64,000 nucleotides of DNA from Escherichia coli. GTDB lineage: Bacteria; Pseudomonadota; Gammaproteobacteria; Enterobacterales; Enterobacteriaceae. The notes below the pieces were generated by a model. It saw nothing but the letters and a program-made list of their open reading frames with translations. It was not told the DNA's origin and did no database searches. How positions within the stretch are numbered: the first letter of the stretch is position 1; each line of letters begins with the position of its first letter. Made by a program: the position numbers and the translations under genes. Positions 20,572-59,856 of the stretch are shown here, in pieces. The stretch lies in assembly GCF_003790525.1 (NCBI RefSeq), contig NZ_CP033635.1. One strand, given 5' to 3'.

Positions 20572-21495
20572 TTAACGCGTTCGCTGTGAAAGCACCTGCT
20601 GCTTATCCAGCTTTTGCACCAGCGGCTGCACCACTTTATCCCCATGCTGACCAAAGTATTGATACAGCGTATCGGACGCGCTTTTAGTCAGCACCATAAT
20701 CTCAATGCGCCGGTTGCCCGCGCTTTGCGGATTTTTCGCGTCCAGCAGCATCTGGTCCGCCATTGCGCTCACCTGCATCACTTTATCTTCCGGCATTCCT
20801 GCCTCTTCCAGCACCCGACGAGCCGAAAGCGCGCGGTCACCCGAAAGGTTCCAGTTGTTGTAGATATTGTTTTTGTAGGCCATCGCATCGGTATGCCCGG
20901 TAATAATAATTTTGTTATCGAGCGAGTCGAACACTGGCGCGAGCTCCACCAGCAGCGTTTTAAAGAACGGCATAATCTGCGCGCTGCCACGTTCGAACAT
21001 ATTGCGATTCTGGTCGTCTTTAATCAGCACGCGTAATCCCTGCGGGACAATCTCCATCTCCAGATTCGCTTCCATATGCGCATCACGGGCAATGGTGTTG
21101 ATACTGGTTGCCAGCTCACCAAGCTCGGTGGCGGATTTCTTCTTCAGCAGCGCCGTTTTCTCGTTGACGTCGCGCGCTTTTTTCTCCGTCTCTTCCGGCA
21201 CTGCCACGGTGGCAGGTTTTGACGGATGAGACGGGCTGATTTTATTTAACGGCGACAGCCCGCCACCGTTAAAAATCGACTGCCCGTGTAGCGCGGCGAT
21301 AATGCTTTCACGCTCGGATTTACTGACGCTGTTGACAATCCACAGCGTCATAAACAGCGCCATCATTGCCAAAGTAAAATCGGCGAACGCCACCTTCCAC
21401 GCCCCGCCGTGGTGCCCGGCATGATTCTTTTTGATCTGCCGCCGGACGATGGTGGTTTTTGCCCCACGCTCGCGGCGGTTGCCCGTCTTTCTCAT
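20572..21495 (-). CDS. lafU: Lateral flagellar motor stator protein (MotB homolog), full length
   Basis: Translation from MRKTGNRRERGAKTTIVRRQ... has a single transmembrane segment and an OmpA-like C-terminal domain; ATG overlaps the lafT stop. Confidence 0.9.
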   Translation of the reverse strand: MRKTGNRRERGAKTTIVRRQIKKNHAGHHGGAWKVAFADFTLAMMALFMTLWIVNSVSKSERESIIAALHGQSIFNGGGLSPLNKISPSHPSKPATVAVPEETEKKARDVNEKTALLKKKSATELGELATSINTIARDAHMEANLEMEIVPQGLRVLIKDDQNRNMFERGSAQIMPFFKTLLVELAPVFDSLDNKIIITGHTDAMAYKNNIYNNWNLSGDRALSARRVLEEAGMPEDKVMQVSAMADQMLLDAKNPQSAGNRRIEIMVLTKSASDTLYQYFGQHGDKVVQPLVQKLDKQQVLSQRTR

Positions 21496-21497
21496 GC

Positions 21498-22361
21498 TTA
21501 TTCTTGCTCCAGCATCGCATTCACCCACGCGTCGAGGTTGGCGAACGTCGGTTTGGACGCCAGATGCAGCAACTTACGCCCGGCGTCCACCGCCAACAGC
21601 GTCGGTTTGCCGCCCGCCTGGGCCACCAGCACGGTACGCACACACTCCAGCAGCGAATGTTCCGCCCGCGCCTGCTGTTCCATGGCGTTGGCGAGCGGGT
21701 CCATCAGGCAGTAGCAAATAAACACGCCTAAAAATGTCCCCACCAGCGCTGCCGCCACTTTCAGGCCAATCAGGGCGATAGAACCGTCAATTGACTGCAT
21801 GGTGATGATGATGCCCAGCACCGCCGCGCAAATACCAAATCCCGGCATCGCTTCGGCGGTCCGTTGCAGCGAGCGTGACGGCGTTAACAGCGACTCTTCA
21901 GCGGTGTCCAGCTCCTGATCGAGAATGCCTTCCAGTTCATGGGCGTCGATTTTACCCATCGCCATCAGGCGAAAGTTATCGGCAATAAAAGTCACCAGCC
22001 GCTTCTGGGTTAACACCAGCGGGTATTTCTGGAAAACGGTACTCTCTTCCGGCTGCTCAATATGCTGATCCAACATCCGCAGACCGCCGTTTTGTACCAT
22101 TTCAAGCAACTCATACAGGCACATTAATAGCTGGCGCTGAAACTCCGGCCCGAGCTGTTTTTTACTGATCACGCCTTTAATTTGATGGGCAATCTCTTTC
22201 AGCACATGTTTCGGGTTCCCAATAATCATCGCCCCGAAACCCGCACCCAAAATAATGATCATTTCCGCCGGTTGCCAGATAGCCACTAATTGCCCGCCCG
22301 CTTCAAAATAACCGCCAAATACGCAGCCGAGCACCACCAGTAAACCTAATATTTTTTGCAT
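21498..22361 (-). CDS. lafT: Lateral flagellar motor stator protein (MotA homolog)
   Basis: 287-aa multi-pass membrane protein with MotA-like sequence, directly upstream of the MotB homolog. Confidence 0.9.
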   Translation of the reverse strand: MQKILGLLVVLGCVFGGYFEAGGQLVAIWQPAEMIIILGAGFGAMIIGNPKHVLKEIAHQIKGVISKKQLGPEFQRQLLMCLYELLEMVQNGGLRMLDQHIEQPEESTVFQKYPLVLTQKRLVTFIADNFRLMAMGKIDAHELEGILDQELDTAEESLLTPSRSLQRTAEAMPGFGICAAVLGIIITMQSIDGSIALIGLKVAAALVGTFLGVFICYCLMDPLANAMEQQARAEHSLLECVRTVLVAQAGGKPTLLAVDAGRKLLHLASKPTFANLDAWVNAMLEQE

Positions 22362-22373: not shown

Positions 22374-23093
22374 TTAATTCGGATAGACAAAATCACGAAT
22401 TTTCTGCGCGATCTGTTTATTCAGTTGACAAATTCGGGCCTCGGTTAGCCCTAATACCAGCGCAATCTCTTTGAGATTCATCTCATGCTGGTAATACATG
22501 GAGAGGATCAGTTGCTCTTTTTCGCTTAATTGTGAAAGCGCGTGTTGCAACATTTGCTGGGTGACAAACTGATCTTCCAGTTCCCGGCCAGCAAGCGGAA
22601 TGCCTGGCCCTTCGCCGTTCAGCAGTTCGTCAAGGCTGGCGAGCGTTTCCGCCCCTTCCAGTTGCTGATATTCGAGATAATCTTCATGCGAGATCCCTTC
22701 CACGGCCAGTTCTGACCACTCAGGCTCGTGCCCCAGTTTTTTACGCGTTTCGCGAATCAGGTCTTTCATCTGATGATATTTCTGTCGCAGCTGGCGCGGT
22801 CGCCAGTCGAGAGCGCGCAGCTCATCCAGGATCGCACCGCGAATACGGTGCACGGCATAGCCCGCAAAACCTTCGTCCGGCAGCCCGTAGCGGCGAATGG
22901 CATTAAGCAGCCCCATTAACGCCGTTTGTTCCATATCCTGACGATCAATAATGCAATTACACTGCGGGGCAAGTTGCCGCACCACTTTACGCACCAGTGG
23001 TAAATAGGCCTGCAAGTAGTGGCTCTCCTGCTGCGGGGTTAATACCGGCGCGGCAGCAAATTCTTCTGACTCGAATAATACGTCCTGTAGCAT
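22374..23093 (-). CDS. lafS: Lateral flagellar sigma factor (FliA/sigma-28 homolog)
   Basis: 239 aa with sigma-70 family regions 2 and 4 (e.g. ...LKEIALVLGLTEARICQLNKQ...). Confidence 0.9.
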   Translation of the reverse strand: MLQDVLFESEEFAAAPVLTPQQESHYLQAYLPLVRKVVRQLAPQCNCIIDRQDMEQTALMGLLNAIRRYGLPDEGFAGYAVHRIRGAILDELRALDWRPRQLRQKYHQMKDLIRETRKKLGHEPEWSELAVEGISHEDYLEYQQLEGAETLASLDELLNGEGPGIPLAGRELEDQFVTQQMLQHALSQLSEKEQLILSMYYQHEMNLKEIALVLGLTEARICQLNKQIAQKIRDFVYPN

Positions 23094-23112: not shown

Positions 23113-23580
23113 TTACTGGAAGACCACTTTTTTCACCAGCAAATCCTTATACGGTGCGCTCATTTTGCGACGCTGAAGATCTTTCTTTAGCGCATCAGAA
23201 ATCAGTTTGCGGATGGCAGATATTTTCATGCCCCGCAAATCTTCAAATTTCATTTCCGTCAGGCATTCAACCGCAATACTTTGATACAATGGCTCCTGAT
23301 GTTTTATTTTTTCCGCTTCTTTGTCACTGGCAACCACCATCACTAATTCCGCCGACAAATAATGGTCCGCGCCGTTGTTGTCATGCAGCGTGACAATGGT
23401 TTCCGGCAGCGTCACAAACACGCTTTTGCTTTCATCCAGGGTTTCCACCGCTTCCGTCCGCGCAACGGCAGTCGGTTTTCCTTTTCCGGCATAATGATGC
23501 CAGACACCCCATCCAGCTCCAGCGCCGACCACCAACGCCAGAACGGCGCTGACCACGCCCGCCACCACGATTTTCTTCAT
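23113..23580 (-). CDS. lafF: Flagellar basal-body-associated protein (FliL homolog)
   Basis: 155 aa with N-terminal transmembrane segment and FliL-like sequence. Confidence 0.8.
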   Translation of the reverse strand: MKKIVVAGVVSAVLALVVGAGAGWGVWHHYAGKGKPTAVARTEAVETLDESKSVFVTLPETIVTLHDNNGADHYLSAELVMVVASDKEAEKIKHQEPLYQSIAVECLTEMKFEDLRGMKISAIRKLISDALKKDLQRRKMSAPYKDLLVKKVVFQ

Positions 23581-23587: not shown

Positions 23588-24649
23588 TTACACTTTGATC
23601 AAAACGGATTCGTTCTGTTGAAATTGAGGCGCATCATCAAGCTGTAAGGCGGCACTCACCTCTTCCTGCTGATGGCCCGACTGTTGTTGCTGTTGCGACT
23701 GCCCTTCGGAGGAGACCTGTACGTTCACCTCCATAAAATTTTGCGCCGTCAGATGCTGGCGGAGATCGTCGCTAAACTGCTGTAACGCGCGGCAAACTTC
23801 ACTTTGGTTCGCGCCGATGTGCACCATCAGTTTGCCGTTGTCGAGTTGTACGGCGATCTCGAGCTTGCCAAGCGACGGTGGATCGAGACGGATGGTGGAG
23901 ATCTGCTGTTGTTTGTTGAGCTGAAAGTGGATCTGATCTTTCAACAGCGTCGTCAGTTTTTCGCCCAGTTCGTCCATCGAAAGCGTGGCTGGTTTGGCGA
24001 CAATCTCCTGATGTTCGCTGACCAGATCCGGCGTCTTAACCTGCAACACCGCACGCGCAATAACCGGTTCGCTGTCCGGCACTTTTTCCGTTTTACGCTC
24101 GACCTGCGGGCGCGCGTTCACACGGGTTAGTTCAGGTTTCGGGCGAGCTGGCTGTGTTGAGACGCGCGGCTGCGTCGGTGCAATGGCATGTAAATCTTCA
24201 CTGGCGTAAGTCGCCAGTCTGGCCTGCTGTTCGGGTTTCGCCTGCGGCAACTGACTGATCAGCTCCTGCAACTGCGGCGGCAACGGCGTGAGTTCCTGCT
24301 GCTGCGTCGGGCGTTGCGCCGCGTTTTGCACCACCGCTTTCGTCAATTGCTGGATAACCGGCGATGTTGCGACGTTTCGCGGCTGCGGCGTGTCCTGATG
24401 CGGCGCGGCAGGTTGCGGAAGTAACAGCGCCATTAGCGCCTGCATCGCCACCGGATCGTTCTCCTGCGGGCGCGTCGCCTGTTGCTGACTGGTTTTTGCG
24501 CTATGAACGCGCTCCGCCACCGCCGCGACCGCCATTTTCGGCAGGGTAAACGCGGGCGCGTTTTCACTACTCACCGGCGGTAAAATATCCGCTTTCAGCG
24601 ACGCCGTTTCCGCAAGTGTTCCGAGCGTGGCAAGCAATGCCGGATTCAT
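23588..24649 (-). CDS. lafE: Hook-length control protein (FliK homolog)
   Basis: 353 aa, Pro/Gln-rich central region with a conserved C-terminal domain; position after the fliT/fliS homologs. Confidence 0.75.
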   Translation of the reverse strand: MNPALLATLGTLAETASLKADILPPVSSENAPAFTLPKMAVAAVAERVHSAKTSQQQATRPQENDPVAMQALMALLLPQPAAPHQDTPQPRNVATSPVIQQLTKAVVQNAAQRPTQQQELTPLPPQLQELISQLPQAKPEQQARLATYASEDLHAIAPTQPRVSTQPARPKPELTRVNARPQVERKTEKVPDSEPVIARAVLQVKTPDLVSEHQEIVAKPATLSMDELGEKLTTLLKDQIHFQLNKQQQISTIRLDPPSLGKLEIAVQLDNGKLMVHIGANQSEVCRALQQFSDDLRQHLTAQNFMEVNVQVSSEGQSQQQQQSGHQQEEVSAALQLDDAPQFQQNESVLIKV

Positions 24650-24957
24650 GACTTCTCCGAAAGTAAATTAACAATTGAGTAGGCCAGTACGCCTTCCTGA
24701 TGCCGCTGATGCTGTTCCATACGCGCCTTCAACACTTCTGCACGCTGCTCGCGCCGTTTAATCAGGGCATTAAACGCGCCGTACAGCTGCGCCTTCACCG
24801 CACACAACTGCGCCGCGTCGGTTTCCGCCGCCACGTAATCGTGAAACTGGCGCATCAACTGCTGATGCAGTGCCGGAAGGCGTCGCCAGCGTTGCTTGTC
24901 GAGGGCTTCGTTCATCGCTTCAACCAGCGCGAAAAGTTGCCTGCGTTGTTTTTCCAT
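24646..24957 (-). CDS. lafD: Flagellar chaperone (FliT-like)
   Basis: Small helical protein between the FliS and FliK homologs. Start placed at ATG 24957; the track start at 24999 is a GTG that would overlap lafC. Confidence 0.55.
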   Translation of the reverse strand: MEKQRRQLFALVEAMNEALDKQRWRRLPALHQQLMRQFHDYVAAETDAAQLCAVKAQLYGAFNALIKRREQRAEVLKARMEQHQRHQEGVLAYSIVNLLSEKS

Positions 24958-24961: not shown

Positions 24962-25354
24962 TTAACCCAGCTTGCCCGAAAGCCCTTCCCAGCCTTCACG
25001 CAGGTTGCTTAAGATCAGCATCACTTCATCGATTTTCTCTGCCGACAGTTCGCCACTGGCTTCATACAAGCGATACACGCAGTGGTCATAGAGGCGAGAA
25101 AGATTCACCACCAGCTCGCCACCGGTTTCAAACTCCAGCGAACTGGTGAGCGCATTGAGAATGTCGATGCATTTATTGATGCTCTGGGCTTTCTTCTCGA
25201 AACGCCGCCCTTCAATGTGGCTTCTGGCGCGTTCCAGCTCGTCCATCAGGCCAGAAAACAGCACCAGCACCAGTTCAAGAGGCGATGCCGCAGCGGTACG
25301 CGCCGCGAGATCGACCTCTTTGTATTGCGAATAGCCATCCTGTACTTGGTACAT
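24962..25354 (-). CDS. lafC: Flagellin-specific chaperone (FliS homolog)
   Basis: 130-aa translation MYQVQDGYSQYKEVDLAARTAAASPLELVLVLFSGLMDELERA... is FliS-like. Confidence 0.85.
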   Translation of the reverse strand: MYQVQDGYSQYKEVDLAARTAAASPLELVLVLFSGLMDELERARSHIEGRRFEKKAQSINKCIDILNALTSSLEFETGGELVVNLSRLYDHCVYRLYEASGELSAEKIDEVMLILSNLREGWEGLSGKLG

Positions 25355-25376: not shown

Positions 25377-26693
25377 TTACGCGAATGCCGCCATGCTGGC
25401 TTTCATGGTGTACACCTCAACCAGCGTGTTGGTGTACTCCTCCAGATAACGGTCGTAGTTGGCGTTATAGGTATCGGTAAGCTGATCGCCTTCGTCCTGA
25501 ATTTTGCTCATCTGATCGTCAATGTTCTGCTGGCGCAGGGTGATGATGCCGTTGCTGGAGTCGGTATAGGTGTCAATAAGGCTGTCCATCTGCGCCACCA
25601 TGCTGTTATCGCCGACGAAAATAGAGGTCAGGCCGTCGGGATCGCTCTTCATCGCGTCGTTGAACTGGTCTGAATCAATCTGTAAATGGCCGTGAGAATC
25701 GAGCGTAATGCCATAGTCGACAATCGACACGCCGTTGTAGCTGGCATGGGCGATGTCATCGAGCTGGTTTGCCAGTGAGCTGAGTCCGGCGTCGCCTGCA
25801 AATACCCCGGCGCTGGTACTGTCATCACCGTGGGTGGTCAGCGAATCAACCGTATCAATCAAGGTGTTATATGCATCGACAAAGGTCTGTACTTTCTCCT
25901 GGCTGGCGCTGGAATCTTCGCTGATGTTAAAGGTAGTGAGATCGCTGTCAGAATCGCTGACTTCGGTGAAAGTCATGGTGACGCCGGGGATCACATCATC
26001 AAAGGTATTGCTGCTATTAGTGATCTCTGGCCCCGTGGCGCTGCCGAGATGAATAATCGCGTCCTGGGCGGAGGAAACATCCGTAGCAACAGGCGCGCTG
26101 GCGCTGTCGTTGCTGGCGTCATGCCCCGTTACGCTCACCGAAAATGCGCTCTGCGCCCCGGTGCTATCGGAGGTGAGCATAATCGTGGTGGTGCCGTCGG
26201 TTTTTACCAGTGCCGCCGACACGCCCGGATTGTCATCAGAGTCGTTAATCGCATTCACCAGTTCACTGGCGTCGATAAAACCGTCGCCGTCACCGTTTTG
26301 ATCCGCCGCCGACAGATCGATATCCATGGTGCTGCCGCCCATCGTCAGTTCGAAGGTGCCGGTAGCGGAAAAGGCGTCGTCGCCCATACTGAACGTGGTT
26401 TGCTGCCCCTGTGCCAGTTGCTCAACGAAAAATGAGTAGCTTCCCGCCTGCGCCTGGGAATTGGCGGAAACGGTCGCCGAGTCATTATTGCTGGTGGCGG
26501 CAAACGTCACCGGGCCGTCAGTATCGCTGTTCAGCGCGTCAACGGCGCTCTGAAAATCGCTCAACGCTGAGCTGAGCGAGTCCAGGCCGCTGCTTTCCGC
26601 ATCCAGCTCGCTCTGCTTCTCCTGCAAGTTTGCCGCCTGAGTGGCAACATCCGCATAGGCGATTTCTTGCGCAATGGTTCTTGGGTTGATCAT
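25377..26693 (-). CDS. lafB: Flagellar filament cap protein (FliD homolog)
   Basis: 438 aa with FliD-like N- and C-terminal heptad regions. Confidence 0.85.
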   Translation of the reverse strand: MINPRTIAQEIAYADVATQAANLQEKQSELDAESSGLDSLSSALSDFQSAVDALNSDTDGPVTFAATSNNDSATVSANSQAQAGSYSFFVEQLAQGQQTTFSMGDDAFSATGTFELTMGGSTMDIDLSAADQNGDGDGFIDASELVNAINDSDDNPGVSAALVKTDGTTTIMLTSDSTGAQSAFSVSVTGHDASNDSASAPVATDVSSAQDAIIHLGSATGPEITNSSNTFDDVIPGVTMTFTEVSDSDSDLTTFNISEDSSASQEKVQTFVDAYNTLIDTVDSLTTHGDDSTSAGVFAGDAGLSSLANQLDDIAHASYNGVSIVDYGITLDSHGHLQIDSDQFNDAMKSDPDGLTSIFVGDNSMVAQMDSLIDTYTDSSNGIITLRQQNIDDQMSKIQDEGDQLTDTYNANYDRYLEEYTNTLVEVYTMKASMAAFA

Positions 26694-26725: not shown

Positions 26726-26740
26726 GCAAAAGGCGTGCCA
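26726..26740 (-). promoter_or_regulatory. Sigma-54 (-24/-12) promoter upstream of lafB
   Basis: Minus strand reads TTGGCACgccttTTGCC, i.e. GG-N10-GC matching TGGCAC-N5-TTGC; predicted start ~20 nt upstream of the lafB ATG, with GGAG RBS in between. Confidence 0.5.
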
Positions 26741-26898: not shown

Positions 26899-27813
26899 TT
26901 ACTGCAGCAGGCTGGAAACCATGCTGGACATGCTGTTGGACTGTTTCAGCATGGTGATGCCGGTCTGCATCAGCACCTGCTGTTTAGTCATGTTGGACGC
27001 TTCCGTCGCGTAGTCGGTATCCATAATGTTACCGATAGCGACTTCGGTGTTGTCCTGCATACTGGTCAGGTTATTAGCGGTGTCGTTCAGACGGTTGATA
27101 GACGCCCCCAGCTTGGACTGGATCTGCGAAACATCATCCATCGCGGTAGAAATGCTGGTGATCATCTGGTTAGCCGAGCCAGACGCAGTCAGCTCAGTAC
27201 CGCCAGAAACGCCTGCGGTGCCAGTGGTGTCAGCCTGATCCGCACTGAAGGAGTTGCTGATAGCAGAAAGATCCGTCACCAGGGTATTCAGCTGGCTTGA
27301 AATATTCACGGTCATGGTGTCGGAAGATTCCGCGCCCACCTGGAAAGTTACTGCGCTCTGGAACAGACCGTCAGTACCGGTGTTGCTGGTACCGGAAACA
27401 CCGAACAGGTTGGTGCCGCCGTAAGTGGTGTTTTGCAGCATGTCAGACATCTGCTGACCCAGTTCATCGTATTCGTCCTGCATCGCCTGCAGATCGTCGT
27501 CGCTGTAGGTGCCGTTCGCTGCCTGAGTTGACAGGTCTTTCATACGACCCAGCACATCAGACATTTCGTCGAACATGCTGTCAGCGGTTTGCAGCATCGC
27601 GGTGGCATCATTGATGTTGCTCAGCGCCACACCCATACCGCTGGACTGTGCTGTCAGACGGTTAGCAATTTGTTTGCCTGCGGCGTCATCGGCAGAAGAG
27701 TTAATCCGGTTACCCGTTGCCAGGCGTTCCATAGATGTAGACAGAGAAGAGCTGCTTTTACTGATTGCATTAACGGCGGCCATTGAGGCGTTATTGGTGT
27801 TAATAGATAACAT
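26899..27813 (-). CDS. lafA: Lateral flagellin
   Basis: Translation from MLSINTNNASMAAVNAISKSS... has conserved flagellin N- and C-terminal domains (ends ...MSSMVSSLLQ); AGGAG RBS upstream of ATG 27813. Confidence 0.9.
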   Translation of the reverse strand: MLSINTNNASMAAVNAISKSSSSLSTSMERLATGNRINSSADDAAGKQIANRLTAQSSGMGVALSNINDATAMLQTADSMFDEMSDVLGRMKDLSTQAANGTYSDDDLQAMQDEYDELGQQMSDMLQNTTYGGTNLFGVSGTSNTGTDGLFQSAVTFQVGAESSDTMTVNISSQLNTLVTDLSAISNSFSADQADTTGTAGVSGGTELTASGSANQMITSISTAMDDVSQIQSKLGASINRLNDTANNLTSMQDNTEVAIGNIMDTDYATEASNMTKQQVLMQTGITMLKQSNSMSSMVSSLLQ

Positions 27814-27858: not shown

Positions 27859-27885
27859 AAAACGACACCTCAGGAGCAAACTTAA
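27859..27885 (-). promoter_or_regulatory. Candidate sigma-28-type (LafS-dependent) promoter upstream of lafA
   Basis: Minus strand reads TTAAGTTT-N11-GTCGTTTT about 45 nt upstream of the lafA ATG; shares a motif with sites upstream of lfgK and lfgM. Confidence 0.3.
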
Positions 27886-28299: not shown

Positions 28300-29142
28300 A
28301 TGAGTATTATTATCAACAACTGGCGGATGGACCCGTCGCTTAATGCCTTAATACATTGCGAAACGGGTGAAACACGTCGTCTCGGCGAATACCATTTTAT
28401 TTTGCTGGAAACATTAGCAAAAAATGCCGATGTGGTTTTATCGCGATCTTATTTATGTGCCGAAGTATGGAAGAACCGCATAGTCGGCGGTAACAGCCTG
28501 CCGACGGCGATCCATGCGTTGCGCGTTGCTATCGACGATGATGGCAAACAACAGAACATTATTAAAACAATTCCGAAGAAAGGTTACTTGTGCAATAAAG
28601 AGTATGTGTCTTTGCCGGAGTCATCGCCTGCAGAAGCGCTGATTATTACCGACCAGATACAAGATACAGCCCCAGAAGAGATATCTTCGACAACACCGCC
28701 TGTACCTGTTAGAAAAAAACATAAAGGACTGATGGGGTTAGCGTTGACCGCGGCTGTTATATTTATTGGCTCGACCGTGGGGTATTCACACTTGAAAAGT
28801 ACACCTGACGCCCCGCAACTGGTAAAAGAGTCAATTAACAGTCCAAGAATAAAAATATTTCATCTTAGTTCTGGAAAGGAAAATAATTCCGTACCGTTAC
28901 TGTCACAAACCCTCGAACCAGGAAAAGACAAACTCGATAATTTATTGTCAGCGCATAATATGACAATGACAACCTATTATAAATATGTTCGTAACCGACT
29001 GGAAAGCGATATTGTTCTGCGTAACCAGTGCAACGGCAGCTGGCAATTAACCTTTAATGTGGAAGGTTGGCAGAACAGCGATATTAATAGCGCGATGTAT
29101 CAGAATTTGGAGAAGTTGTTAAATACTGTGCAGAAATGCTGA
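28300..29142 (+). CDS. lafZ: ToxR/CadC-like transmembrane transcriptional regulator
   Basis: N-terminal winged-helix DNA-binding domain (…LGEYHFILLETLAKNADVVLSRSYLCAEVW…IKTIPKKGY), one transmembrane segment (GLMGLALTAAVIFIGSTVGY), periplasmic C-terminus. Start could also be the ATG at 28249. Confidence 0.7.
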   Translation: MSIIINNWRMDPSLNALIHCETGETRRLGEYHFILLETLAKNADVVLSRSYLCAEVWKNRIVGGNSLPTAIHALRVAIDDDGKQQNIIKTIPKKGYLCNKEYVSLPESSPAEALIITDQIQDTAPEEISSTTPPVPVRKKHKGLMGLALTAAVIFIGSTVGYSHLKSTPDAPQLVKESINSPRIKIFHLSSGKENNSVPLLSQTLEPGKDKLDNLLSAHNMTMTTYYKYVRNRLESDIVLRNQCNGSWQLTFNVEGWQNSDINSAMYQNLEKLLNTVQKC

Positions 29143-49270: not shown

Positions 49271-49272
49271 GG

Positions 49273-51907: not shown

Positions 51908-51911
51908 AGGG

Positions 51912-52253
51912 TTAGATCGACATACTCATCAGATCGTTAAATCCGGTGGCGATTTTGTTGCGCACCTGCACCAGCGCGGAGAAAGAGAGCGACGCCTGCT
52001 GGCTGGCGATCATCGCCCCGGCGAGGTCATCACTTTTGCCCGTGTCGACAGCCGTTTGCTGCTGCTCCGCCACCTGCTGGAACTGGTCAACGTGACCGAG
52101 CGCGCCGGACATAATACGGTTAAACGACACGTCCGGGTCGGTGGAACTGAAGGTCATGGCGGGTAGCACTGGCGCCTGGGCGTTGGCCTGCATCCGCTGC
52201 ACGTCCTGCATAATTTGCGCCTGCATGGTGCTGTTGATTGTGGTAATGCTCAT
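51912..52253 (-). CDS. lfiE: Flagellar hook-basal body protein (FliE homolog)
   Basis: 113 aa with FliE-like C-terminus (…ASLSFSALVQVRNKIATGFNDLMSMSI). Confidence 0.85.
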   Translation of the reverse strand: MSITTINSTMQAQIMQDVQRMQANAQAPVLPAMTFSSTDPDVSFNRIMSGALGHVDQFQQVAEQQQTAVDTGKSDDLAGAMIASQQASLSFSALVQVRNKIATGFNDLMSMSI

Positions 52254-52267
52254 TTTTAACTTCCGGG

Positions 52268-53254
52268 TCAGGAGAAAACTTCGATACCGTGCTTGCGCAT
52301 GGAGGCCAGTCGATAGCGCAGTGCGCGCGGGGTAATGCCTAACAGGTCAGCGATTTTGCTGCGGTTGCCCTGATATTTACGCATCAGGTCGGCGATATAT
52401 TGATACTGCGCGCTTCGTCCGTGCTGGCCTAAATCGCCGGTTTCGGCAATGTGGACGGCGGGCTGAACAGGCCATTGCAGTTCACTGTGGTCAGCAATAT
52501 CGGTGTCCGGCAGGCCTAATGCATCCGGGTAAATTACGCCGTCGCGATTTAAAATCATTCCCCGCTGAATGGCGTTTTCCAGTTGGCGAACGTTACCGGG
52601 CCAACGGTAATTGAGCAGCGCACGGCGGGTGGATTCGGACAGGGTGATATTTTTCACCAGCACCGTGGAGTATTTTTTAATAAATGACTCTGCCAGCGGA
52701 ATAATATCGTTCAGACGTTCACGCAGCGGCGGCATGGTAATAGGAATCACCGCCAGACGATAATAGAGATCTTCACGAAAACGTCCGGCGGCAACTTCCT
52801 GCTCCAGGTTTTTATTGGTGCAGGCAATCAGGCGAAAATTGAGTTTGATTTGTCGGTTGCTGCCTAATCGCTCAACCTGTTGTTCCTGCAACACGCGTAA
52901 TATTTTGGCCTGTAGCGCCAGCGGCATTTCACCAATTTCATCGAGCAATAAGGAGCCGTTATTTGCCAGTTCCATTTTTCCTGGCACGCTGGCAATTGCG
53001 CCGGTAAATGCGCCTTTGTCGTAGCCAAATAACGTCGATTCCAGCATATTTTCCGGGATCGCCGCGCAGTTCACGCCGATATAGGGCGCATTATCATTTT
53101 CACCAAAGGCTACGGTGTGAATATATTTCGCCACGCACTCTTTCCCCGCGCCGGTTTCGCCCTGAATGAGCACCGGCACGTTAAAGGCGGCGACACGCTT
53201 TGCCAGAGTAAAAGCGTTAATGCTGGAAGCGGCAGTTGCAATAAGTTCAGACAT
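52268..53254 (-). CDS. lafK: Sigma-54-dependent transcriptional activator of lateral flagella (AAA+ domain plus C-terminal HTH, no N-terminal receiver domain)
   Basis: 328 aa; Walker A GETGAGKE at residues ~30-40, GAFTGA sigma-54 contact motif, C-terminal Fis-type HTH (SKIADLLGITPRALRYRLAS). No coding potential upstream for a receiver domain. Confidence 0.9.
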   Translation of the reverse strand: MSELIATAASSINAFTLAKRVAAFNVPVLIQGETGAGKECVAKYIHTVAFGENDNAPYIGVNCAAIPENMLESTLFGYDKGAFTGAIASVPGKMELANNGSLLLDEIGEMPLALQAKILRVLQEQQVERLGSNRQIKLNFRLIACTNKNLEQEVAAGRFREDLYYRLAVIPITMPPLRERLNDIIPLAESFIKKYSTVLVKNITLSESTRRALLNYRWPGNVRQLENAIQRGMILNRDGVIYPDALGLPDTDIADHSELQWPVQPAVHIAETGDLGQHGRSAQYQYIADLMRKYQGNRSKIADLLGITPRALRYRLASMRKHGIEVFS

Positions 53255-53407: not shown

Positions 53408-53446
53408 CCCCCTCACCCTAACCCTCTCCCCGGATGGGGCGAGGGG
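53408..53446. repeat. GC-rich palindromic intergenic repeat (boxC-like), single copy
   Basis: CCCCCTCACCCTAACCCTCTCCCCGGATGGGGCGAGGGG between divergent lafK and lfiM. Confidence 0.4.
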
Positions 53447-53626
53447 ACAGACCGCAGACTGATTGGCGAAAATCACTCCCATTAAGCAATTAATCGATTA
53501 ATTATTTTTTCACCCTATTAATAATTTGCCCCTTTCACTCCCCCTCTATTTAATACCTCACCTTGTGTCACAGCCGGATTTGCGTGCACAGAAACACCCA
53601 TACCATTACAGCAGAGAAAGTAAGCC

Positions 53627-54478
53627 ATGCTGAAGTACAGTAAAACGCCAGGCATCTTTAAATTAGAAGGTAATCGGCTCGGACGCCCCTACCATCGCCT
53701 GCCGACCCTGTTTACGGGGAATTTTGACGTGATTGATTCGCATCTTGGCAGCTACTTTCTCAAAAAGCATCGCAGCAATATCACCTTAAAAAAGATTGGC
53801 TGCGAAATGGATATTATTAATAAAAACGCCGAACTGATGGTTTCCCAGGTCGGGCATCTGGCGTTTGATATTGATCGCTCCTTATTGTTAATGCTGCTGG
53901 GCAATTTTTATGGTCTGGAGTCCTCTCTTGAAGAGGCGAAAGCGCATAACGGGCTGCCGACCAAAACCGAAACTCGTTTAAAAAACCGACTCGCGCTGGA
54001 TATCTGCACGCTGATATTTAATCTGCAAACCTCCGGTATTGCGCTGAAATTAAAACTGGACAGCAGCACGGTGATTACCCACTGGGCGTATCAATTAACC
54101 TTTACCCTTGCGGGCGATGAAGAGAGCAGTTTCCGTATTTTGCTCGACGACGCCCACACCGATTTTATTTTGAATCTGATCCGCCACAGCGAGCACAGTA
54201 AACCGCAGCAGGTGGCGAAATCCGTTAATAAACCGGCCCTGATTAAAGAAATCATCCGCTCCCTGCCGCTGACCCTGAACGTCAAAATCGCCGAGCTATC
54301 GATGAATGTCGCCGATCTGGCGCAGATAAAAGCCGGGGATATTTTACCCATCTCGCTGGGAGAAACGTTCCCGGTGGCGATTGGGCAATCTGAATTATTT
54401 AGCGCCCTGATTGTGGAAGACAAAGACAAACTGTTTTTGTCGGAGCTGGCGGGCAAGAATGAGAATAGCCATGAGTAA
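53627..54478 (+). CDS. lfiM: Flagellar switch protein (FliM homolog)
   Basis: 283 aa with C-terminal SpoA-like segment (LAQIKAGDILPISLGE). Confidence 0.85.
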   Translation: MLKYSKTPGIFKLEGNRLGRPYHRLPTLFTGNFDVIDSHLGSYFLKKHRSNITLKKIGCEMDIINKNAELMVSQVGHLAFDIDRSLLLMLLGNFYGLESSLEEAKAHNGLPTKTETRLKNRLALDICTLIFNLQTSGIALKLKLDSSTVITHWAYQLTFTLAGDEESSFRILLDDAHTDFILNLIRHSEHSKPQQVAKSVNKPALIKEIIRSLPLTLNVKIAELSMNVADLAQIKAGDILPISLGETFPVAIGQSELFSALIVEDKDKLFLSELAGKNENSHE

Positions 54479-54842
54479 ACAAGACGATATTTTAGCCGGG
54501 GATTTTGGCCTCGCCGATGAAGTTGCGCCTGTCACGAAATCCGCCGACGCCGAAACGCTGGTCACCCGCCTGGAAGACCGCTTTTCCGACTCGATGACGC
54601 TGCTGAAACGCATTCCGGTGACCTTAACGCTGGAAGTGTCGTCGGTGGAAATTATGTTAGCCGACCTGCTTAACATCGACGACGACACGGTGATTGAGCT
54701 GGATAAGCTCGCCGGGGAGCCGCTGGATATCAAAGTGAACAATATCCTGCTGGGCAAAGCGGAAGTGGTGGTGGTCAACGAGAAGTACGGCCTGCGCGTG
54801 CTGGAGTTTAACACCCGCGATATCAACGACCTGGCACCATGA
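54471..54842 (+). CDS. lfiN: Flagellar switch protein (FliN homolog)
   Basis: Translation from MSKQDDILAGDFG... with SpoA domain (…LGKAEVVVVNEKYGLRVLE); ATG overlaps the lfiM stop. Confidence 0.85.
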   Translation: MSKQDDILAGDFGLADEVAPVTKSADAETLVTRLEDRFSDSMTLLKRIPVTLTLEVSSVEIMLADLLNIDDDTVIELDKLAGEPLDIKVNNILLGKAEVVVVNEKYGLRVLEFNTRDINDLAP

Positions 54843-55591
54843 AACGCCGCACTCAACTGGCGCTGGGCCTTGGGCTGCTGGCGCTTGCGCCGCTGGCGTT
54901 GGCCCAGGGTGGCGATATTGCGCTACTTAACGTGGTGACCCACGGCAACACTCAGGAGTACAGCGTCAAAATTCAGGTACTGATTCTGATGACCCTCGTC
55001 GGTTTGCTGCCGACGATGGTGCTGATGATGACCTGCTTTACGCGCTTTATTATCGTGCTGTCGCTGCTGCGCCAGGCGCTGGGGCTGCAACAAACGCCGC
55101 CAAACCGCATTCTGATTGGTATTGCGCTCTCACTCACTATGCTGGTGATGCGCCCTGTCTGGCTCAATATTTACGACCACGCGGTAGTGCCGTTTGAAAA
55201 CGATCAGATTACCCTGACCGATGCGTTAAGCACCGCCGCGACGCCGCTAAAACGCTTTATGCTGGCGCAGACCGACAAAAAAGCGATGGCGCAAATCATG
55301 ACCATCGGCGGCGCGAAGGGCAATGCCGCCGACCAGGATCTCACGATTGTGGTGCCCGCCTATGTGTTGAGCGAGCTGAAAACCGCTTTCCAGATTGGCT
55401 TTATGATTTACATCCCGTTTCTGGTTATCGACCTGATTGTCGCAAGCGTACTGATGGCGATGGGGATGATGATGCTGTCGCCGCTGATTGTTTCGCTGCC
55501 CTTTAAACTGATGCTGTTTGTGCTGATCGACGGCTGGTCGCTGACCATCGGCACGCTCACCACCAGCATTCGCGGGCTGGGGCTGGGCTGA
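54839..55591 (+). CDS. lfiP: Flagellar export apparatus protein (FliP homolog)
   Basis: 250 aa with signal peptide and FliP-like membrane core; ATGA overlap with lfiN. Confidence 0.9.
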   Translation: MKRRTQLALGLGLLALAPLALAQGGDIALLNVVTHGNTQEYSVKIQVLILMTLVGLLPTMVLMMTCFTRFIIVLSLLRQALGLQQTPPNRILIGIALSLTMLVMRPVWLNIYDHAVVPFENDQITLTDALSTAATPLKRFMLAQTDKKAMAQIMTIGGAKGNAADQDLTIVVPAYVLSELKTAFQIGFMIYIPFLVIDLIVASVLMAMGMMMLSPLIVSLPFKLMLFVLIDGWSLTIGTLTTSIRGLGLG

Positions 55592-55593
55592 TT

Positions 55594-55866
55594 ATGTTGA
55601 CCGTAGACGTAGCCGCCGACATTGTCGCCAGTGGCATAAAAGTGGTGATTTTGCTGGTTTCGGTGCTGGTGGTGCCAAGCCTGCTGGTCGGCCTGCTGGT
55701 GAGCGTGTTCCAGGCGGTGACGCAGATTAACGAACAGACCCTGAGCTTTTTGCCGAGGCTGATTGTCACGCTGGTGGTGCTGGGGGTGTGCGGCAAATGG
55801 ATGATTATCCAGTTGCATGATCTCTGCATTCATCTGTTTAGTCAGGCCGCCCTGCTGGTGCATTAA
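55594..55866 (+). CDS. lfiQ: Flagellar export apparatus protein (FliQ homolog)
   Basis: 90-aa two-helix membrane protein, FliQ-like. Confidence 0.9.
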   Translation: MLTVDVAADIVASGIKVVILLVSVLVVPSLLVGLLVSVFQAVTQINEQTLSFLPRLIVTLVVLGVCGKWMIIQLHDLCIHLFSQAALLVH

Positions 55867-55867
55867 G

Positions 55868-56650
55868 ATGCGCACAAGCGACGTTACGCAACTGACGGAT
55901 TTGGCGCTGGGGCTGTGGTTTCCCTTCGTGCGCATTATGGCGTTTCTGCGCTATGTGCCGGTGCTGGATAACAGCGCCCTGACCGTGCGTGTGCGGATTA
56001 TTTTGTCGCTGGCGCTGGCAATCATCATCACGCCGTTAATTCCGCATCCCATTCCCCACGATCTGCTATCGCTCAACAGTCTGATCCTGACGGTGGAGCA
56101 AATTTTATGGGGCATGTTATTCGGATTGATGTTTCAGTTTCTGTTTCTGGCGCTGCAACTCGCCGGGCAAATTCTCTCGTTCAATATGGGGATGAGCATG
56201 GCGGTGATGAACGACCCAAGCAGCGGCGCATCGACCACCGTGCTGGCGGAGTTAATTAACGTCTATGCGATCCTGCTGTTTTTTGCCATGGACGGGCATC
56301 TGCTGCTGGTAAGCGTGCTGTATAAGGGTTTCACCTACTGGCCGATTGGCAACGCGCTGCATCCGCAAACCCTGCGCACCATCGCGCTGGCCTTTAGCTG
56401 GGTGCTGGCGTCCGCATCACTGCTGGCGCTGCCGACCACTTTTATCATGCTGATTGTGCAGGGCTGCTTTGGCCTGCTTAACCGCATTGCGCCGCCGCTG
56501 AACCTTTTTTCGCTCGGCTTTCCCATCAACATGCTGGCGGGGCTGGTTTGCTTCGCCACCCTGCTCTACAACCTGCCGGATCACTATCTGCATCTGGCGA
56601 ATTTTGTGTTGCAGCAACTCGACGCGCTGAAAGGTCACTATGGCGGATAG
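55868..56650 (+). CDS. lfiR: Flagellar export apparatus protein (FliR homolog)
   Basis: Multi-pass membrane protein; start at ATG 55868 just after the lfiQ stop. Confidence 0.85.
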   Translation: MRTSDVTQLTDLALGLWFPFVRIMAFLRYVPVLDNSALTVRVRIILSLALAIIITPLIPHPIPHDLLSLNSLILTVEQILWGMLFGLMFQFLFLALQLAGQILSFNMGMSMAVMNDPSSGASTTVLAELINVYAILLFFAMDGHLLLVSVLYKGFTYWPIGNALHPQTLRTIALAFSWVLASASLLALPTTFIMLIVQGCFGLLNRIAPPLNLFSLGFPINMLAGLVCFATLLYNLPDHYLHLANFVLQQLDALKGHYGG

Positions 56651-57779
56651 CAGCAGCGAAGAAAAAACAGAGAAACCCTCGGCGCAAAAGCTGCGTAAAG
56701 CGCGTGAAGAGGGGCAACTGCCGCGCTCGAAGGATATGGGGCTGGCGGCGAGCCTGTTTGCGGCGTTTGTGGTGATCTCCAGCAGCTTCCCGTGGTATGC
56801 CGATTTTGTGCGTGAGAGTTTTATCAGCGTGCATCAGTACGCGCAGGAGATTAATAACCCGGATGTGATCGGCCAGTTTCTGCGCCATCACCTGTTAATT
56901 CTCGGCAAGTTTATTCTTACCTTGCTGCCGATGCCCGCCGCCGCACTGCTCTCCTCGCTGGTGCCTGGCGGCTGGCTGTTTCTGCCGAAAAAAATCCTCC
57001 CTGATTTCAGCAAAATTAGCCCGTTAAAAGGGATTGGGCGACTGTTTTCCAGTGAGCATCTGGCGGAAACGGGAAAGATGACAGTGAAGTCGGTGGTGGT
57101 GCTGGTGATGCTGTGGGTAAGCCTGCGCAATAACTTTGCCGCCTTTCTCGGCCTGCAGGCGCTGCCGTTCAAACTGGCAATTAACGATGGTTTATCGCTC
57201 TACGCCAGCGTGATGCGCAACTTTGTCATCCTGTTTATCTTCTTTGCGCTTATCGACGTGCCGCTGGCGAAAGCCCTGTTTACCAAAGGGCTGAAGATGA
57301 CCAAGCAGGAGCTGAAAGAAGAGTACAAAAATCAGGAAGGCAAGCCGGAAGTGAAGGCGCGCGTGCGACGGCTGCAACGGCAGCTGGCGATGGGGCAAAT
57401 CCGCAAAGTGGTGCCGAAAGCCAACGTGGTGATCACCAACCCGACCCACTACGCCGTGGCGTTGCAGTATGACCAGTCTCGCGCCGCCGCGCCGTTTGTG
57501 GTGGCAAAAGGCACCGATGAAATCGCCCTCTATATTCGCCAGGTCGCCGCTGAGAATCAGGTGGAAGTGGTCGAGTTCCCGCGGCTGGCGCGCTCGGTTT
57601 ACTACACCACGCAGGTGAACCAACAAATTCCGTTTCAGCTTTACCGGGCCATCGCCCACGTTCTGACCTACGTCCTACAAATGAAACACTGGCGCGAGGG
57701 CGCACAGCCGCGCCCGGCCCTGAACAGACATATTTCCATTCCCAAAGAGGTGCTTAAACTGGATGGCGAAAACAACTAA
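56640..57779 (+). CDS. lfhB: Flagellar export apparatus protein (FlhB homolog)
   Basis: 379 aa with the NPTH autocleavage motif (VITNPTHYAVAL). Confidence 0.9.
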   Translation: MADSSSEEKTEKPSAQKLRKAREEGQLPRSKDMGLAASLFAAFVVISSSFPWYADFVRESFISVHQYAQEINNPDVIGQFLRHHLLILGKFILTLLPMPAAALLSSLVPGGWLFLPKKILPDFSKISPLKGIGRLFSSEHLAETGKMTVKSVVVLVMLWVSLRNNFAAFLGLQALPFKLAINDGLSLYASVMRNFVILFIFFALIDVPLAKALFTKGLKMTKQELKEEYKNQEGKPEVKARVRRLQRQLAMGQIRKVVPKANVVITNPTHYAVALQYDQSRAAAPFVVAKGTDEIALYIRQVAAENQVEVVEFPRLARSVYYTTQVNQQIPFQLYRAIAHVLTYVLQMKHWREGAQPRPALNRHISIPKEVLKLDGENN

Positions 57780-59856
57780 ATCGTTCCTCGCGCTGCTGCG
57801 CGGCGGCAATCTCGGCGTGCCGCTGGTAATACTGTGTATTCTGGCGATGGTTATTCTGCCGCTGCCGCCTGCGCTGCTGGATATTCTGTTCACCTTCAAC
57901 ATTGTGCTGGCGGTGATGGTGCTGCTGGTGGCGGTGTCGGCGAAAAGGCCGCTGGAATTCAGCCTGTTCCCGACCATTTTGCTGATCACCACTTTAATGC
58001 GCCTGACGCTCAACGTCGCCTCCACGCGCGTGGTGCTGTTACACGGGCATCTCGGCGCGGGCGCGGCGGGTAAGGTAATTGAGTCGTTTGGTCAGGTGGT
58101 GATTGGCGGCAACTTTGTCGTCGGTTTCGTGGTGTTTATCATCCTGATGATCATCAACTTTATCGTCGTCACCAAAGGGGCCGAGCGTATTTCCGAGGTT
58201 TCTGCCCGCTTTACCCTGGACGCGATGCCCGGTAAACAGATGGCGATTGACGCCGATCTTAACGCCGGATTGATCAACCAGGCGCAGGCACAAACCCGGC
58301 GTAAAGATGTTGCCAGCGAGGCCGATTTCTACGGCGCAATGGACGGGGCATCGAAGTTTGTGCGCGGCGATGCCATCGCCGGGATGATGATTCTGGCGAT
58401 CAACCTGATCGGCGGCGTCTGTATCGGGATCTTCAAATACAACCTGAGCGCCGACGCCGCCTTCCAGCAATATGTGCTGATGACTATCGGCGACGGGCTG
58501 GTGGCGCAGATCCCGTCCCTGCTGCTCTCCACCGCGGCGGCAATTATCGTCACCCGCGTCAGCGACAACGGCGATATCGCCCATGACGTGCGCCACCAGC
58601 TGCTGGCAAGTCCGTCGGTGCTCTACACCGCCACCGGGATCATGTTTGTGCTGGCGGTGGTGCCGGGGATGCCGCATCTGCCATTTTTGCTGTTCAGCGC
58701 CCTGCTTGGCTTTACCGGCTGGCGGATGAGCAAACGCCCGCAGGCGGCGGAGGCGGAGGAGAAAAGCCTCGAAACGCTGACCCGAACCATCACCGAAACC
58801 AGCGAGCAACAGGTCAGTTGGGAAACCATTCCGCTGATCGAGCCCATCAGCTTAAGCCTCGGCTACAAGCTGGTGGCGCTGGTGGACAAAGCGCAGGGGA
58901 ACCCGCTCACCCAGCGGATTCGCGGCGTGCGGCAGGTGATATCCGACGGTAACGGCGTGCTGCTGCCGGAGATCCGTATTCGGGAAAACTTCCGTCTCAA
59001 GCCCAGCCAGTACGCCATTTTCATCAACGGCATTAAGGCTGATGAAGCGGATATTCCGGCGGATAAACTGATGGCCCTGCCCTCCAGCGAAACCTACGGC
59101 GAGATTGACGGCGTACTGGGGAATGACCCGGCATATGGGATGCCGGTCACCTGGATTCAGCCTGCGCAGAAAGCGAAGGCGCTGAATATGGGGTATCAGG
59201 TGATCGACAGCGCCAGCGTGATTGCTACCCATGTAAATAAGATTGTGCGCAGCTATATTCCTGATTTATTTAACTATGACGATATTACGCAGTTGCATAA
59301 TCGTTTGTCGTCGATGGCACCGCGACTGGCGGAAGACTTAAGCGCGGCGCTCAATTACAGCCAGTTGCTGAAAGTGTATCGCGCGCTGCTGACCGAAGGC
59401 GTTTCCCTGCGCGATATCGTCACCATCGCCACCGTGCTGGTCGCCAGTAGTGCGGTGACTAAAGATCATATCCTGCTGGCGGCCGATGTGCGCCTGGCGC
59501 TGCGGCGCAGTATCACCCATCCGTTCGTTCGCAAGCAGGAGCTGACGGTGTATACGCTGAATAATGAGCTGGAAAATCTGCTGACCAACGTGGTGAATCA
59601 GGCGCAACAGGCCGGCAAAGTGATGCTCGACAGCGTGCCGGTGGACCCGAATATGCTTAACCAGTTCCAGAACACGATGCCGCAAGTGAAGGAGCAGATG
59701 AAAGCGGCGGGGAAAGACCCTGTGCTGCTGGTGCCACCGCAGTTGCGCCCTTTGCTGGCGCGCTATGCGAGATTGTTTGCGCCGGGGCTGCATGTGCTGT
59801 CGTATAACGAAGTGCCGGACGAGCTGGAGTTGAAGATTATGGGGGCGTTGATGTAG
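57763..59856 (+). CDS. lfhA: Flagellar export apparatus protein (FlhA homolog), full length
   Basis: 697 aa with N-terminal membrane domain and FlhA cytoplasmic domain. Confidence 0.95.
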   Translation: MAKTTKSFLALLRGGNLGVPLVILCILAMVILPLPPALLDILFTFNIVLAVMVLLVAVSAKRPLEFSLFPTILLITTLMRLTLNVASTRVVLLHGHLGAGAAGKVIESFGQVVIGGNFVVGFVVFIILMIINFIVVTKGAERISEVSARFTLDAMPGKQMAIDADLNAGLINQAQAQTRRKDVASEADFYGAMDGASKFVRGDAIAGMMILAINLIGGVCIGIFKYNLSADAAFQQYVLMTIGDGLVAQIPSLLLSTAAAIIVTRVSDNGDIAHDVRHQLLASPSVLYTATGIMFVLAVVPGMPHLPFLLFSALLGFTGWRMSKRPQAAEAEEKSLETLTRTITETSEQQVSWETIPLIEPISLSLGYKLVALVDKAQGNPLTQRIRGVRQVISDGNGVLLPEIRIRENFRLKPSQYAIFINGIKADEADIPADKLMALPSSETYGEIDGVLGNDPAYGMPVTWIQPAQKAKALNMGYQVIDSASVIATHVNKIVRSYIPDLFNYDDITQLHNRLSSMAPRLAEDLSAALNYSQLLKVYRALLTEGVSLRDIVTIATVLVASSAVTKDHILLAADVRLALRRSITHPFVRKQELTVYTLNNELENLLTNVVNQAQQAGKVMLDSVPVDPNMLNQFQNTMPQVKEQMKAAGKDPVLLVPPQLRPLLARYARLFAPGLHVLSYNEVPDELELKIMGALM

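Follow-up and report, generated by a model that had tools for sequence, protein, structure and literature searches.

An apparently intact Flag-2 flagellar locus in Escherichia coli: gene content, selection, candidate promoters and variable-region cargo

Does the second flagellar gene set carried by part of the species Escherichia coli, the Flag-2 locus, persist as an apparatus maintained by selection or as a relic? The question is raised by a stretch of 64,000 nucleotides (here, the window) from contig NZ_CP033635.1 of the E. coli assembly GCF_003790525.1, in which RefSeq annotates flagellar genes without a break at positions 20572-59856, lafU being the first and flhA the last. The description of Flag-2 dates from 2005 (Ren et al., J Bacteriol 187:1430, as cited in PMC6993521), and its conserved set comprises 39 genes in the clusters lfhAB-lfiRQPNM-lafK-lfiEFGHIJ, lfgNMABCDEFGHIJKL and lafWZABCDEFSTU (PMC6993521). 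Based on the evidence given below, the interval is very probably this known locus and thus holds a whole second set of flagellar genes, distinct from the main one of E. coli; the copy is of an already described and common kind, and no new kind of system is involved.

All 14 + 14 + 11 genes of the conserved complement are present as open frames and in the published order (Table 1). The run has the bounds of a Flag-2 locus, lfhA and lafU between rayT (yafM) and dinB, with lafU ending at 20572 and lfhA at 59856, dinB at 19446-20501 and rayT at 59968-60465, and with the same flanks as in strains 042 and K-12. The genes lafK, lafW and lafZ, which are specific to Flag-2 and missing from Flag-1, all occur, their products being 95-97.5% identical to the 042 proteins; additionally, the flagellin is of the lateral type, matching the corresponding NCBIfam model (NF033376) over its full length and above its cutoff of 440 bits. 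Variable region 1 (VR1), from lfiJ to lfgN, holds five genes, and variable region 2 (VR2), from lafW to lafZ, is an empty spacer of 58 bp. The window is near-identical to E. coli SMS-3-5 (NC_010498.1 251042-315041, reverse complement), with six differences in 64 kb. The initial annotation, made from the letters of the window, had proposed a complete Flag-2 cluster, and the 39 of 39 conserved genes with open frames bear this out; its coordinates and its dinB and rayT flanks are exact against RefSeq, and both end genes are full length, as it held, LafU having 307 aa and LfhA matching its profile end to end. Every gene that it named was located, 'fliT' (lafD) only through position and transitive homology, and its roster had passed over lafZ, lafW and the five variable-region genes. 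The comparison with 042 that it proposed as a check for frameshifts or missing genes turned up none in this copy. Its statement that K-12 retains only fragments of the end genes agrees with alignment to the window: in MG1655, lfhA and lafU are adjacent pseudogenes with a junction at window positions 21343/58144, so that K-12 keeps codons 128-697 of lfhA and 51-307 of lafU, lacks 36.8 kb relative to the window and shows only short microhomology at the deletion join. It was also right that 042 carries the whole locus, but it omitted that lfgC of 042 is frameshifted (PMC2808357), the copy here being the more intact.

The integrity of the locus was judged in several ways. All 44 annotated coding sequences (CDS) in the interval translate in frame with a single terminal stop each, and RefSeq has no pseudogene flag within the cluster. 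Full-length 042 counterparts exist for 42 of the 44 CDS, at 89-100% protein identity, the exceptions being two cargo genes and lfgC, of which only residues 16-143 align in 042 with the intact copy here. Every protein was also scanned against NCBIfam, so that length was not judged only against a close relative, and near end-to-end matches were obtained for the export gate, ATPase complex, MS ring, FliG, FliN, rod, ring and hook proteins, as well as for the junction, cap, flagellin, stator, sigma-28, anti-sigma and FliS proteins. Hidden frameshifts, truncations and missing genes, sought against both 042 and the family profiles, were not found. Also kept are the NPTH motif of LfhB, the GAFTGA and Walker A motifs of LafK, the Walker A motif of LfiI, the lipobox of LfgH, the signal peptide of LfgI and the MotB-type Asp of LafU ('FADF'). 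Judged from its predicted proteins, the locus codes for every structural class that a flagellum needs, namely the export gate (LfhA, LfhB, LfiPQR), the export ATPase complex (LfiHIJ), the MS ring and switch (LfiF, LfiG, LfiM, LfiN), the rod (LfiE, LfgB, LfgC, LfgF, LfgG), the P and L rings (LfgI and LfgH) with the chaperone LfgA, the hook and its accessories (LfgE, LfgD, LafE), the junction (LfgK, LfgL), the filament and cap (LafA, LafB), the chaperones LafC, LafD and LfgN, and the stator (LafT and LafU). It also encodes regulators of its own: LafK, the sigma factor LafS with its anti-sigma factor LfgM, and LafZ.

Some of these proteins are recognized less directly than the rest. For LafD, a Pfam or NCBIfam match of its own was sought and none was found; the protein shares 27% identity (E 4e-9) with the ortholog at the corresponding place in a distant Flag-2 locus (L018), and that ortholog matches PF05400 FliT. 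The N-terminus of LafZ gives weak CadC/OmpR-type DNA-binding matches and is followed by a hydrophobic segment at about residues 153-172, while its orthologs match Pfam Trans_reg_C. LafW may belong to the axial or hook-associated proteins. LfiM, the FliM homolog, has diverged strongly, with a match limited to the C-terminal FliN-like domain (29 bits against a cutoff of 220), and at its N-terminus a CheY-binding peptide of the LSQxEIDALL type, the motif of K-12 FliM, was not recognized; the Flag-2 motor is therefore probably free of chemotaxis control. LafK aligns with PspF along its whole length and with NtrC-type activators only over their central and C-terminal parts, and therefore has AAA+ and helix-turn-helix (HTH) domains without a receiver domain, from which it follows that control is probably exerted through abundance or lafK transcription and not through phosphorylation.

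The pattern of substitution is that of constrained genes. Across the alignable genes, comparison with 042 gives a dS of 0.177 and a ratio of nonsynonymous to synonymous rates (dN/dS) of 0.065 (Nei-Gojobori). The two lafA genes are separated by 26 synonymous and no nonsynonymous differences, the LafA proteins being 100% identical, and the two lfgG genes by 31 and none; the modification genes of the variable region are under weaker constraint (dN/dS 0.14-0.22). As a comparative estimate, the low dN/dS indicates long-term purifying selection, which speaks against a long-dead relic and is silent on present expression.

With the 042 locus (NC_017626.1 284682-323159), the present copy shares the site, the gene order and the 39 genes, the core genes being collinear. 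All structural differences are confined to spacers or variable regions, and repetitive extragenic palindromic (REP) sequences or bacterial interspersed mosaic elements (BIMEs) account for several of them; compared with 042, this copy has no RelE/HTH toxin-antitoxin pair between lafW and lafZ and has an extra 1.7-kb VR1 segment made up of a BIME and a toxin-immunity pair. Intact Flag-2 loci with an intact lfgC have been published for strains W and Crooks (PMC3032704), EC958 (PMC4637896) and PCN033 (PMC4578781). By their published descriptions, W and Crooks are likewise without the lafW-lafZ toxin-antitoxin pair, and the W locus carries an internal Mu prophage (PMC3032704); W, Crooks, EC958 and PCN033 have, as here, sigma-54 sites upstream of lfgB and lafB (PMC3032704, PMC4637896, PMC4578781). 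Most published intact loci are probably without the Tce1-like cargo pair described below, because no more than 127 of 5,426 complete E. coli genomes carry that pair. Like the lateral systems of Vibrio parahaemolyticus and Aeromonas hydrophila, the locus is a separate gene set with a short lateral-type flagellin, a single-domain FlgJ and a MotAB-type stator, and it contains no flhDC or che genes. The hierarchy from LafK and sigma-54 to LafS and sigma-28 that the promoter-like motifs suggest would also correspond to that of Vibrio and Aeromonas (literature cited in PMC3032704); a point of difference from those systems is the presence of lafW and lafZ, two genes restricted to Enterobacterales (PMC6993521 and a homolog search).

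Candidate promoters give the locus a regulatory outline. The 64 kb contain three copies of the sigma-54 promoter-like sequence YGGCAC-N5-TTGC, where chance would give 0.58, and each lies between genes, in the correct orientation and 32-37 bp upstream of the gene that opens an operon; those of lfgB and lafB had previously been reported in strain PCN033 (PMC4578781). A sigma-28-like motif, TWAAGWTT-N11/12-RYCGYTTT, is found in the window upstream of lafA, lfgK and lfgM only, the genes for which late expression would be expected. Generic scans for terminators and sigma-70 promoters returned matches no more numerous than in shuffled sequence and were not used. Seven Flag-2 loci of other genera (Citrobacter, Atlantibacter, Leminorella, Siccibacter, Pseudescherichia, Ewingella and one metagenome contig), with 37-67% LafW identity, served to follow the lafB, lafA and lfgK sites, and 91 kb of them was scanned on both strands. 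Each of the six loci that contain lafB has a sigma-54 site 33-63 bp upstream of that gene, with one other match in the 91 kb. Six of the seven loci have the sigma-28-like motif upstream of lfgK, and the seventh has a variant that differs by one base; upstream of lafA, four of six loci match by regular expression, the -10-like element being seen by eye in 6/6. Elsewhere in the 91 kb, on either strand, the sigma-28-like motif had no match. The spacer sequence around these motifs is itself not conserved. From these loci, a LafS-type consensus of TTAAG(A/T)(A/T)-N12-14-(G/A)(C/T)CG(C/T)TTTA can be drawn. The FliA consensus is GCCGATAA, from which the LafS-type -10-like element, (G/A)(C/T)CG(C/T)TTTA, is distinct, and this difference could keep two flagellar regulons apart in one cell. 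In the resulting model, LafK with sigma-54 would turn on the hook-basal-body operon that begins with lfgB, the lafB-to-lafU operon, lafS included, and the filament-modification genes; upon completion of the hook, LfgM would be exported and LafS would then turn on lafA, lfgKL and lfgMN. The model takes the GCCGCTTTA element to be a functional promoter element, and the filament that it envisages would probably be methylated and modified with CDP-glycerol.

That last step draws on VR1 (41152-46790). Its lafV-like gene, of a kind described in PMC6993521, encodes a putative flagellin lysine-N-methylase that has no Pfam match; the 814-aa protein combines a GT2 domain with a weak TagF-like CDP-glycerol glycerophosphotransferase segment, and a TagD located in VR1 has also been described (PMC6993521). 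Together, the three modification genes, all of which correspond to the account in PMC6993521, suggest methylation of the filament and a modification of glycerol-phosphate type. A small gene of 139-172 aa without a Pfam family lies between lafW and lafZ in 7/7 other-genus Flag-2 loci (at about 7000-7540 of each locus), where in most cases it overlaps or abuts lafZ; it is not present in the E. coli window or in 042.

The remaining two VR1 genes, hyp273 and hyp179, are of another character and make up the sole uncommon feature of this copy. The pair spans 1.35 kb, has 34% GC against about 56% for the cluster and is not in 042. Only seven clusters in a set of 5.8 billion proteins contain relatives of hyp273, with 202 matches at full HMMER sensitivity. 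In five of nine long homologs the toxin domain starts directly after an RHS repeat-associated core (TIGR03696); a 40%-identical homolog (P0007) comes after vgrG and is followed by a homologous 179-aa partner (29% identity to hyp179, E 1e-8), another lies amid housekeeping genes, and the closest (71% identity) occupies the same Flag-2 position. In each of the four contexts examined, an overlapping partner open reading frame (ORF) follows downstream. In its free-standing form, the putative toxin is extended at the N-terminus by about 28 conserved residues, predicted to be disordered. A profile of the family had no match among PDB sequences, and hyp273 is only 14% identical to the Pseudomonas aeruginosa type VI secretion system (T6SS) effector Tce1 (PDB 9qpe; PMC13323088); unlike Tce1, which has no obvious immunity gene and is not antibacterial (PMC13323088), it has an adjacent conserved partner gene. 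The pair is best read as a putative mobile toxin-immunity module that landed in VR1 as cargo and is not a flagellar part. A role for hyp273 and hyp179 as flagellar components was rejected on account of the homologs behind RHS cores, beside vgrG or among housekeeping genes, and no PADLOC matches were obtained that would make them an anti-phage defence system.

Repeats are the other form of insertion. Two REP-type repeats, with Rfam naRNA4 matches, fill the 420-bp lfgK-lfgJ spacer, of which about 194 bp is not in 042. The BIME stretch after the glycosyltransferase gene has counterparts of about 84% identity in the unannotated DNA of about 5,400 E. coli genomes. In the divergent lafK-lfiM spacer, where the 042 segment is different and cannot be aligned, a GC-rich palindromic dispersed repeat has been inserted, possibly with an effect on how the master activator is controlled. 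In five spacers, the repeats present are not those of 042, and such elements have therefore been turning over inside the cluster. REP or BIME repeats of the window lie at 32652-32846, 44710-44815 and 60564-60641, including beside rayT, a REP-associated transposase gene.

Although the gene set is complete, several observations weigh against a locus that is regulated and working as outlined. A working Flag-2 has yet to be demonstrated in E. coli, and the swarming of W and Crooks is not Flag-2-specific (PMC3032704); in EC958, an ST131 strain with an intact lfgC, LafA went undetected at 28 and 37 °C and motility came only via FliC (PMC4637896). A literature search found no later demonstration of Flag-2 function in E. 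coli, and the view taken at the outset, that this function is poorly understood, agrees with PMC6993521, PMC3032704 and PMC4637896. Lateral flagella of Vibrio and Aeromonas need motY(L) and maf-5, two genes that are missing from other E. coli loci (PMC3032704, PMC4637896), and here too the scanned interval proteins, LafW, LafD and those of the five VR1 genes included, gave no MotY- or Maf-like match, the only OmpA/MotY-like match being that of LafU. A convincing consensus sigma-70, sigma-54 or sigma-28 promoter was not found for lafK, lfiM or lafZ, and the sigma-28-like motif was defined post hoc, with cross-genus conservation as its sole independent test. The repeat in the lafK-lfiM spacer has a median of 13 copies per genome, and its context is common to only 57 genomes. 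Lastly, of the four differences from SMS-3-5 within cluster genes (at 32196, 36709, 46088 and 46900), three are nonsynonymous (LfgK G107V, LfgE Q398R and hyp179 A82E), a 3:1 count that contrasts with the dN/dS of 0.065 and is too small for interpretation.

The alternative that best survives is that the locus is a silent relic, intact on paper, unexpressed in E. coli and being lost lineage by lineage. Its distribution can be read in that way: at least 80% of the lafU-to-glycosyltransferase part is found in 824 of the 5,426 complete genomes and at least 80% of the lfiJ-to-lfhA part in 1,272, so that most of the locus is present in 15-23% of them. A survey of Enterobacterales found Flag-2 in 24 of 100 E. 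coli, and the full 39-gene set in 77.9% of the Enterobacterales that carry Flag-2 (PMC6993521). K-12 and most strains keep only stumps of lfhA and lafU (PMC6993521), and the frameshift in lfgC of 042, the missing LafA of EC958 (PMC4637896), the accumulation of repeats and cargo in spacers, that between lafK and lfiM included, and the unrecognized lafK promoter all fit with decay. Nevertheless, a relic is unlikely, if still to be reckoned with, given a dN/dS of 0.065 across 39 kb, a flagellin and rod proteins that are invariant despite 26-31 synonymous changes, promoter elements that are conserved across genera and catalytic and assembly motifs that are all retained; moreover, a related Flag-2 is expressed in Yersinia enterocolitica and drives swarming of Plesiomonas (as cited in PMC11420993).

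It is improbable that the locus is instead a pseudogene cluster in disguise, inactivated by missense or promoter changes that checks of open frames do not reveal. The three private nonsynonymous changes relative to SMS-3-5 would be candidates for such damage, as would the repeat in the lafK-lfiM spacer with its context in only 57 genomes, but residue 107 of LfgK varies naturally across genera (G, A or T), all examined motifs are intact, and the lafB, lafA and lfgK promoter motifs fit the cross-genus consensus. Very doubtful, too, is the idea that the apparatus is kept mainly for a non-motility role, such as protein secretion or adhesion: the complete stator with its proton-channel Asp, FliL, filament, cap and junction are under purifying selection and would not be needed by a device for secretion only, and the toxin homologs are tied to Rhs and VgrG (T6SS), not to flagella. 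In its favour are the multifunctional roles proposed from cargo genes (PMC6993521), the toxin-like gene pair inside the locus and an LfiM without a CheY-binding-type N-terminus. That the Tce1-like toxin is exported via the Flag-2 type III apparatus, making of it a toxin-delivery device in this lineage, is highly improbable, the reading being prompted by the extension of about 28 residues, the second, 71%-identical variant at the same position and the missing nearby T6SS island of 042 (aspV-linked; missing at the corresponding SMS-3-5 site, the rest of the genome not having been searched).

Table 1. Positions of Flag-2 genes, candidate promoter sites and repeats in the window, with the basis of each assignment (PGAP, Prokaryotic Genome Annotation Pipeline)
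Feature	Position	Strand	Assignment and evidence
lafU	20572-21495	-	MotB-type stator subunit, 307 aa; NCBIfam LafU model 580 bits, full length
lafT	21498-22361	-	MotA stator subunit, 287 aa; TIGR03818 375 bits, 1-281 of 282
lafS	22374-23093	-	FliA-type sigma-28, 239 aa; NF009091 447 bits, full length
lafF	23113-23580	-	FliL family, 155 aa; weak full-length FliL matches and PGAP
lafE	23588-24649	-	FliK hook-length control, 353 aa; PGAP; C-terminal YscP/FliK-type length determinant match
lafD	24646-24957	-	FliT-like chaperone, 103 aa; position and transitive homology
lafC	24962-25354	-	FliS, 130 aa; TIGR00208 77 bits
lafB	25377-26693	-	FliD filament cap, 438 aa; FliD models over full length
sigma-54 promoter-like site TGGCACGCCTTTTGC	26726-26740	-	32 bp upstream of lafB
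lafA	26899-27813	-	lateral flagellin, 304 aa; NF033376 'lateral flagellin LafA' 667 bits, 1-304 of 304
sigma-28-like motif TTAAGTTT-N11-GTCGTTTT	27859-27885	-	upstream of lafA
lafZ	28300-29142	+	ToxR/CadC-like membrane-anchored winged-helix regulator, 280 aa
lafW	29201-30178	-	Flag-2-specific protein, 325 aa
lfgL	30195-31124	-	hook-filament junction protein, 309 aa; TIGR02550 196 bits
lfgK	31139-32515	-	hook-filament junction protein, 458 aa; TIGR02492 351 bits, full length
sigma-28-like motif TTAAGATT-N12-GCCGCTTT	32548-32575	-	upstream of lfgK
two REP-type repeats	32652-32846	-	Rfam naRNA4 matches
lfgJIHGFEDCB operon	32936-39406	-	NCBIfam model per gene, nearly full length
lfgJ	32936-33235	-	rod-binding; single-domain, without muramidase domain
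lfgI	33235-34335	-	
lfgH	34350-35015	-	
lfgG	35098-35883	-	
lfgF	35962-36699	-	
lfgE	36699-37901	-	
lfgD	37924-38637	-	
lfgC	38637-39068	-	intact, 143 aa
lfgB	39071-39406	-	
sigma-54 promoter-like site TGGCACAGCGATTGC	39444-39458	-	37 bp upstream of lfgB
lfgA	39488-40225	+	P-ring chaperone; FlgA model
sigma-28-like motif	40240-40267	+	upstream of lfgM
lfgM	40305-40583	+	anti-sigma-28; FlgM model
lfgN	40596-41024	+	chaperone; PGAP annotation only
sigma-54 promoter-like site CGGCACGCTTATTGC	41102-41116	+	35 bp upstream of lafV-like gene
lafV-like gene	41152-42081	+	putative flagellin lysine-N-methylase, 309 aa; FliB matched weakly (E 5.7e-10, below cutoff)
glycosyltransferase gene	42260-44704	+	814 aa; Pfam Glycos_transf_2 E 9e-18; Glyphos_transf E 3.7e-5
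BIME	44710-44815	.	two inverted REP units, directly after glycosyltransferase stop codon; read from sequence
hyp273	45030-45851	+	Tce1-like clan-CD cysteine-protease toxin domain, 273 aa
hyp179	45844-46383	+	putative immunity protein, 179 aa, hydrophobic N-terminus; overlaps hyp273
tagD-like gene	46395-46790	-	TagD-like glycerol-3-phosphate cytidylyltransferase, 131 aa; TIGR01518 E 4e-33, below equivalog cutoff
lafK-lfiEFGHIJ operon	46793-53254	-	NCBIfam full-length matches
lfiJ	46793-47227	-	
lfiI	47230-48567	-	
lfiH	48560-49270	-	
lfiG	49273-50283	-	
lfiF	50261-51907	-	
lfiE	51912-52253	-	
lafK	52268-53254	-	sigma-54 activator, 328 aa; AAA+ and HTH
GC-rich palindromic dispersed repeat	53409-53455	.	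in divergent lafK-lfiM spacer; read from sequence
lfiMNPQR-lfhBA operon	53627-59856	+	NCBIfam matches
lfiM	53627-54478	+	
lfiN	54471-54842	+	
lfiP	54839-55591	+	
lfiQ	55594-55866	+	
lfiR	55868-56650	+	
lfhB	56640-57779	+	
lfhA	57763-59856	+	773 bits, full length

Outside the flagellar interval, the window contains several other features. The toxin genes yafO (18699-19098) and yafQ (61863-62140) are annotated as frameshifted, and their antitoxin partners yafN (19101-19394) and dinJ (61600-61860) are intact; in 042, dinJ-yafQ is missing altogether and yafO has an internal stop. At 16296-18046, prfH (release factor H) and an adjacent rtcB-family RNA ligase gene are intact, K-12 having only pseudogene remnants (ykfJ, prfH). 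An island at a tRNA-Thr gene (8327-8402 in the annotation, 8330-8402 by Rfam) occupies 1-8402 and includes an integrase gene (6979-8163), a hypothetical gene and an operon for a 1,091-aa hypothetical protein (551-3826), a stand-alone response regulator (3823-4272) and an alpha/beta hydrolase (4269-5432); at 1-90, there is an IS3 end together with a match to the small RNA isrC.

At about 39 kb, Flag-2 is among the largest accessory loci of E. coli, and it has been kept under strong purifying selection. The LafS-type promoter consensus, a LafK without a receiver domain and the Tce1-like family may be useful additions to what has been described of it, the last being an uncharacterized, putative toxin-immunity family for which the Flag-2 variable region serves as a landing site. 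The intact copy present here is a suitable substrate for functional work on Flag-2.

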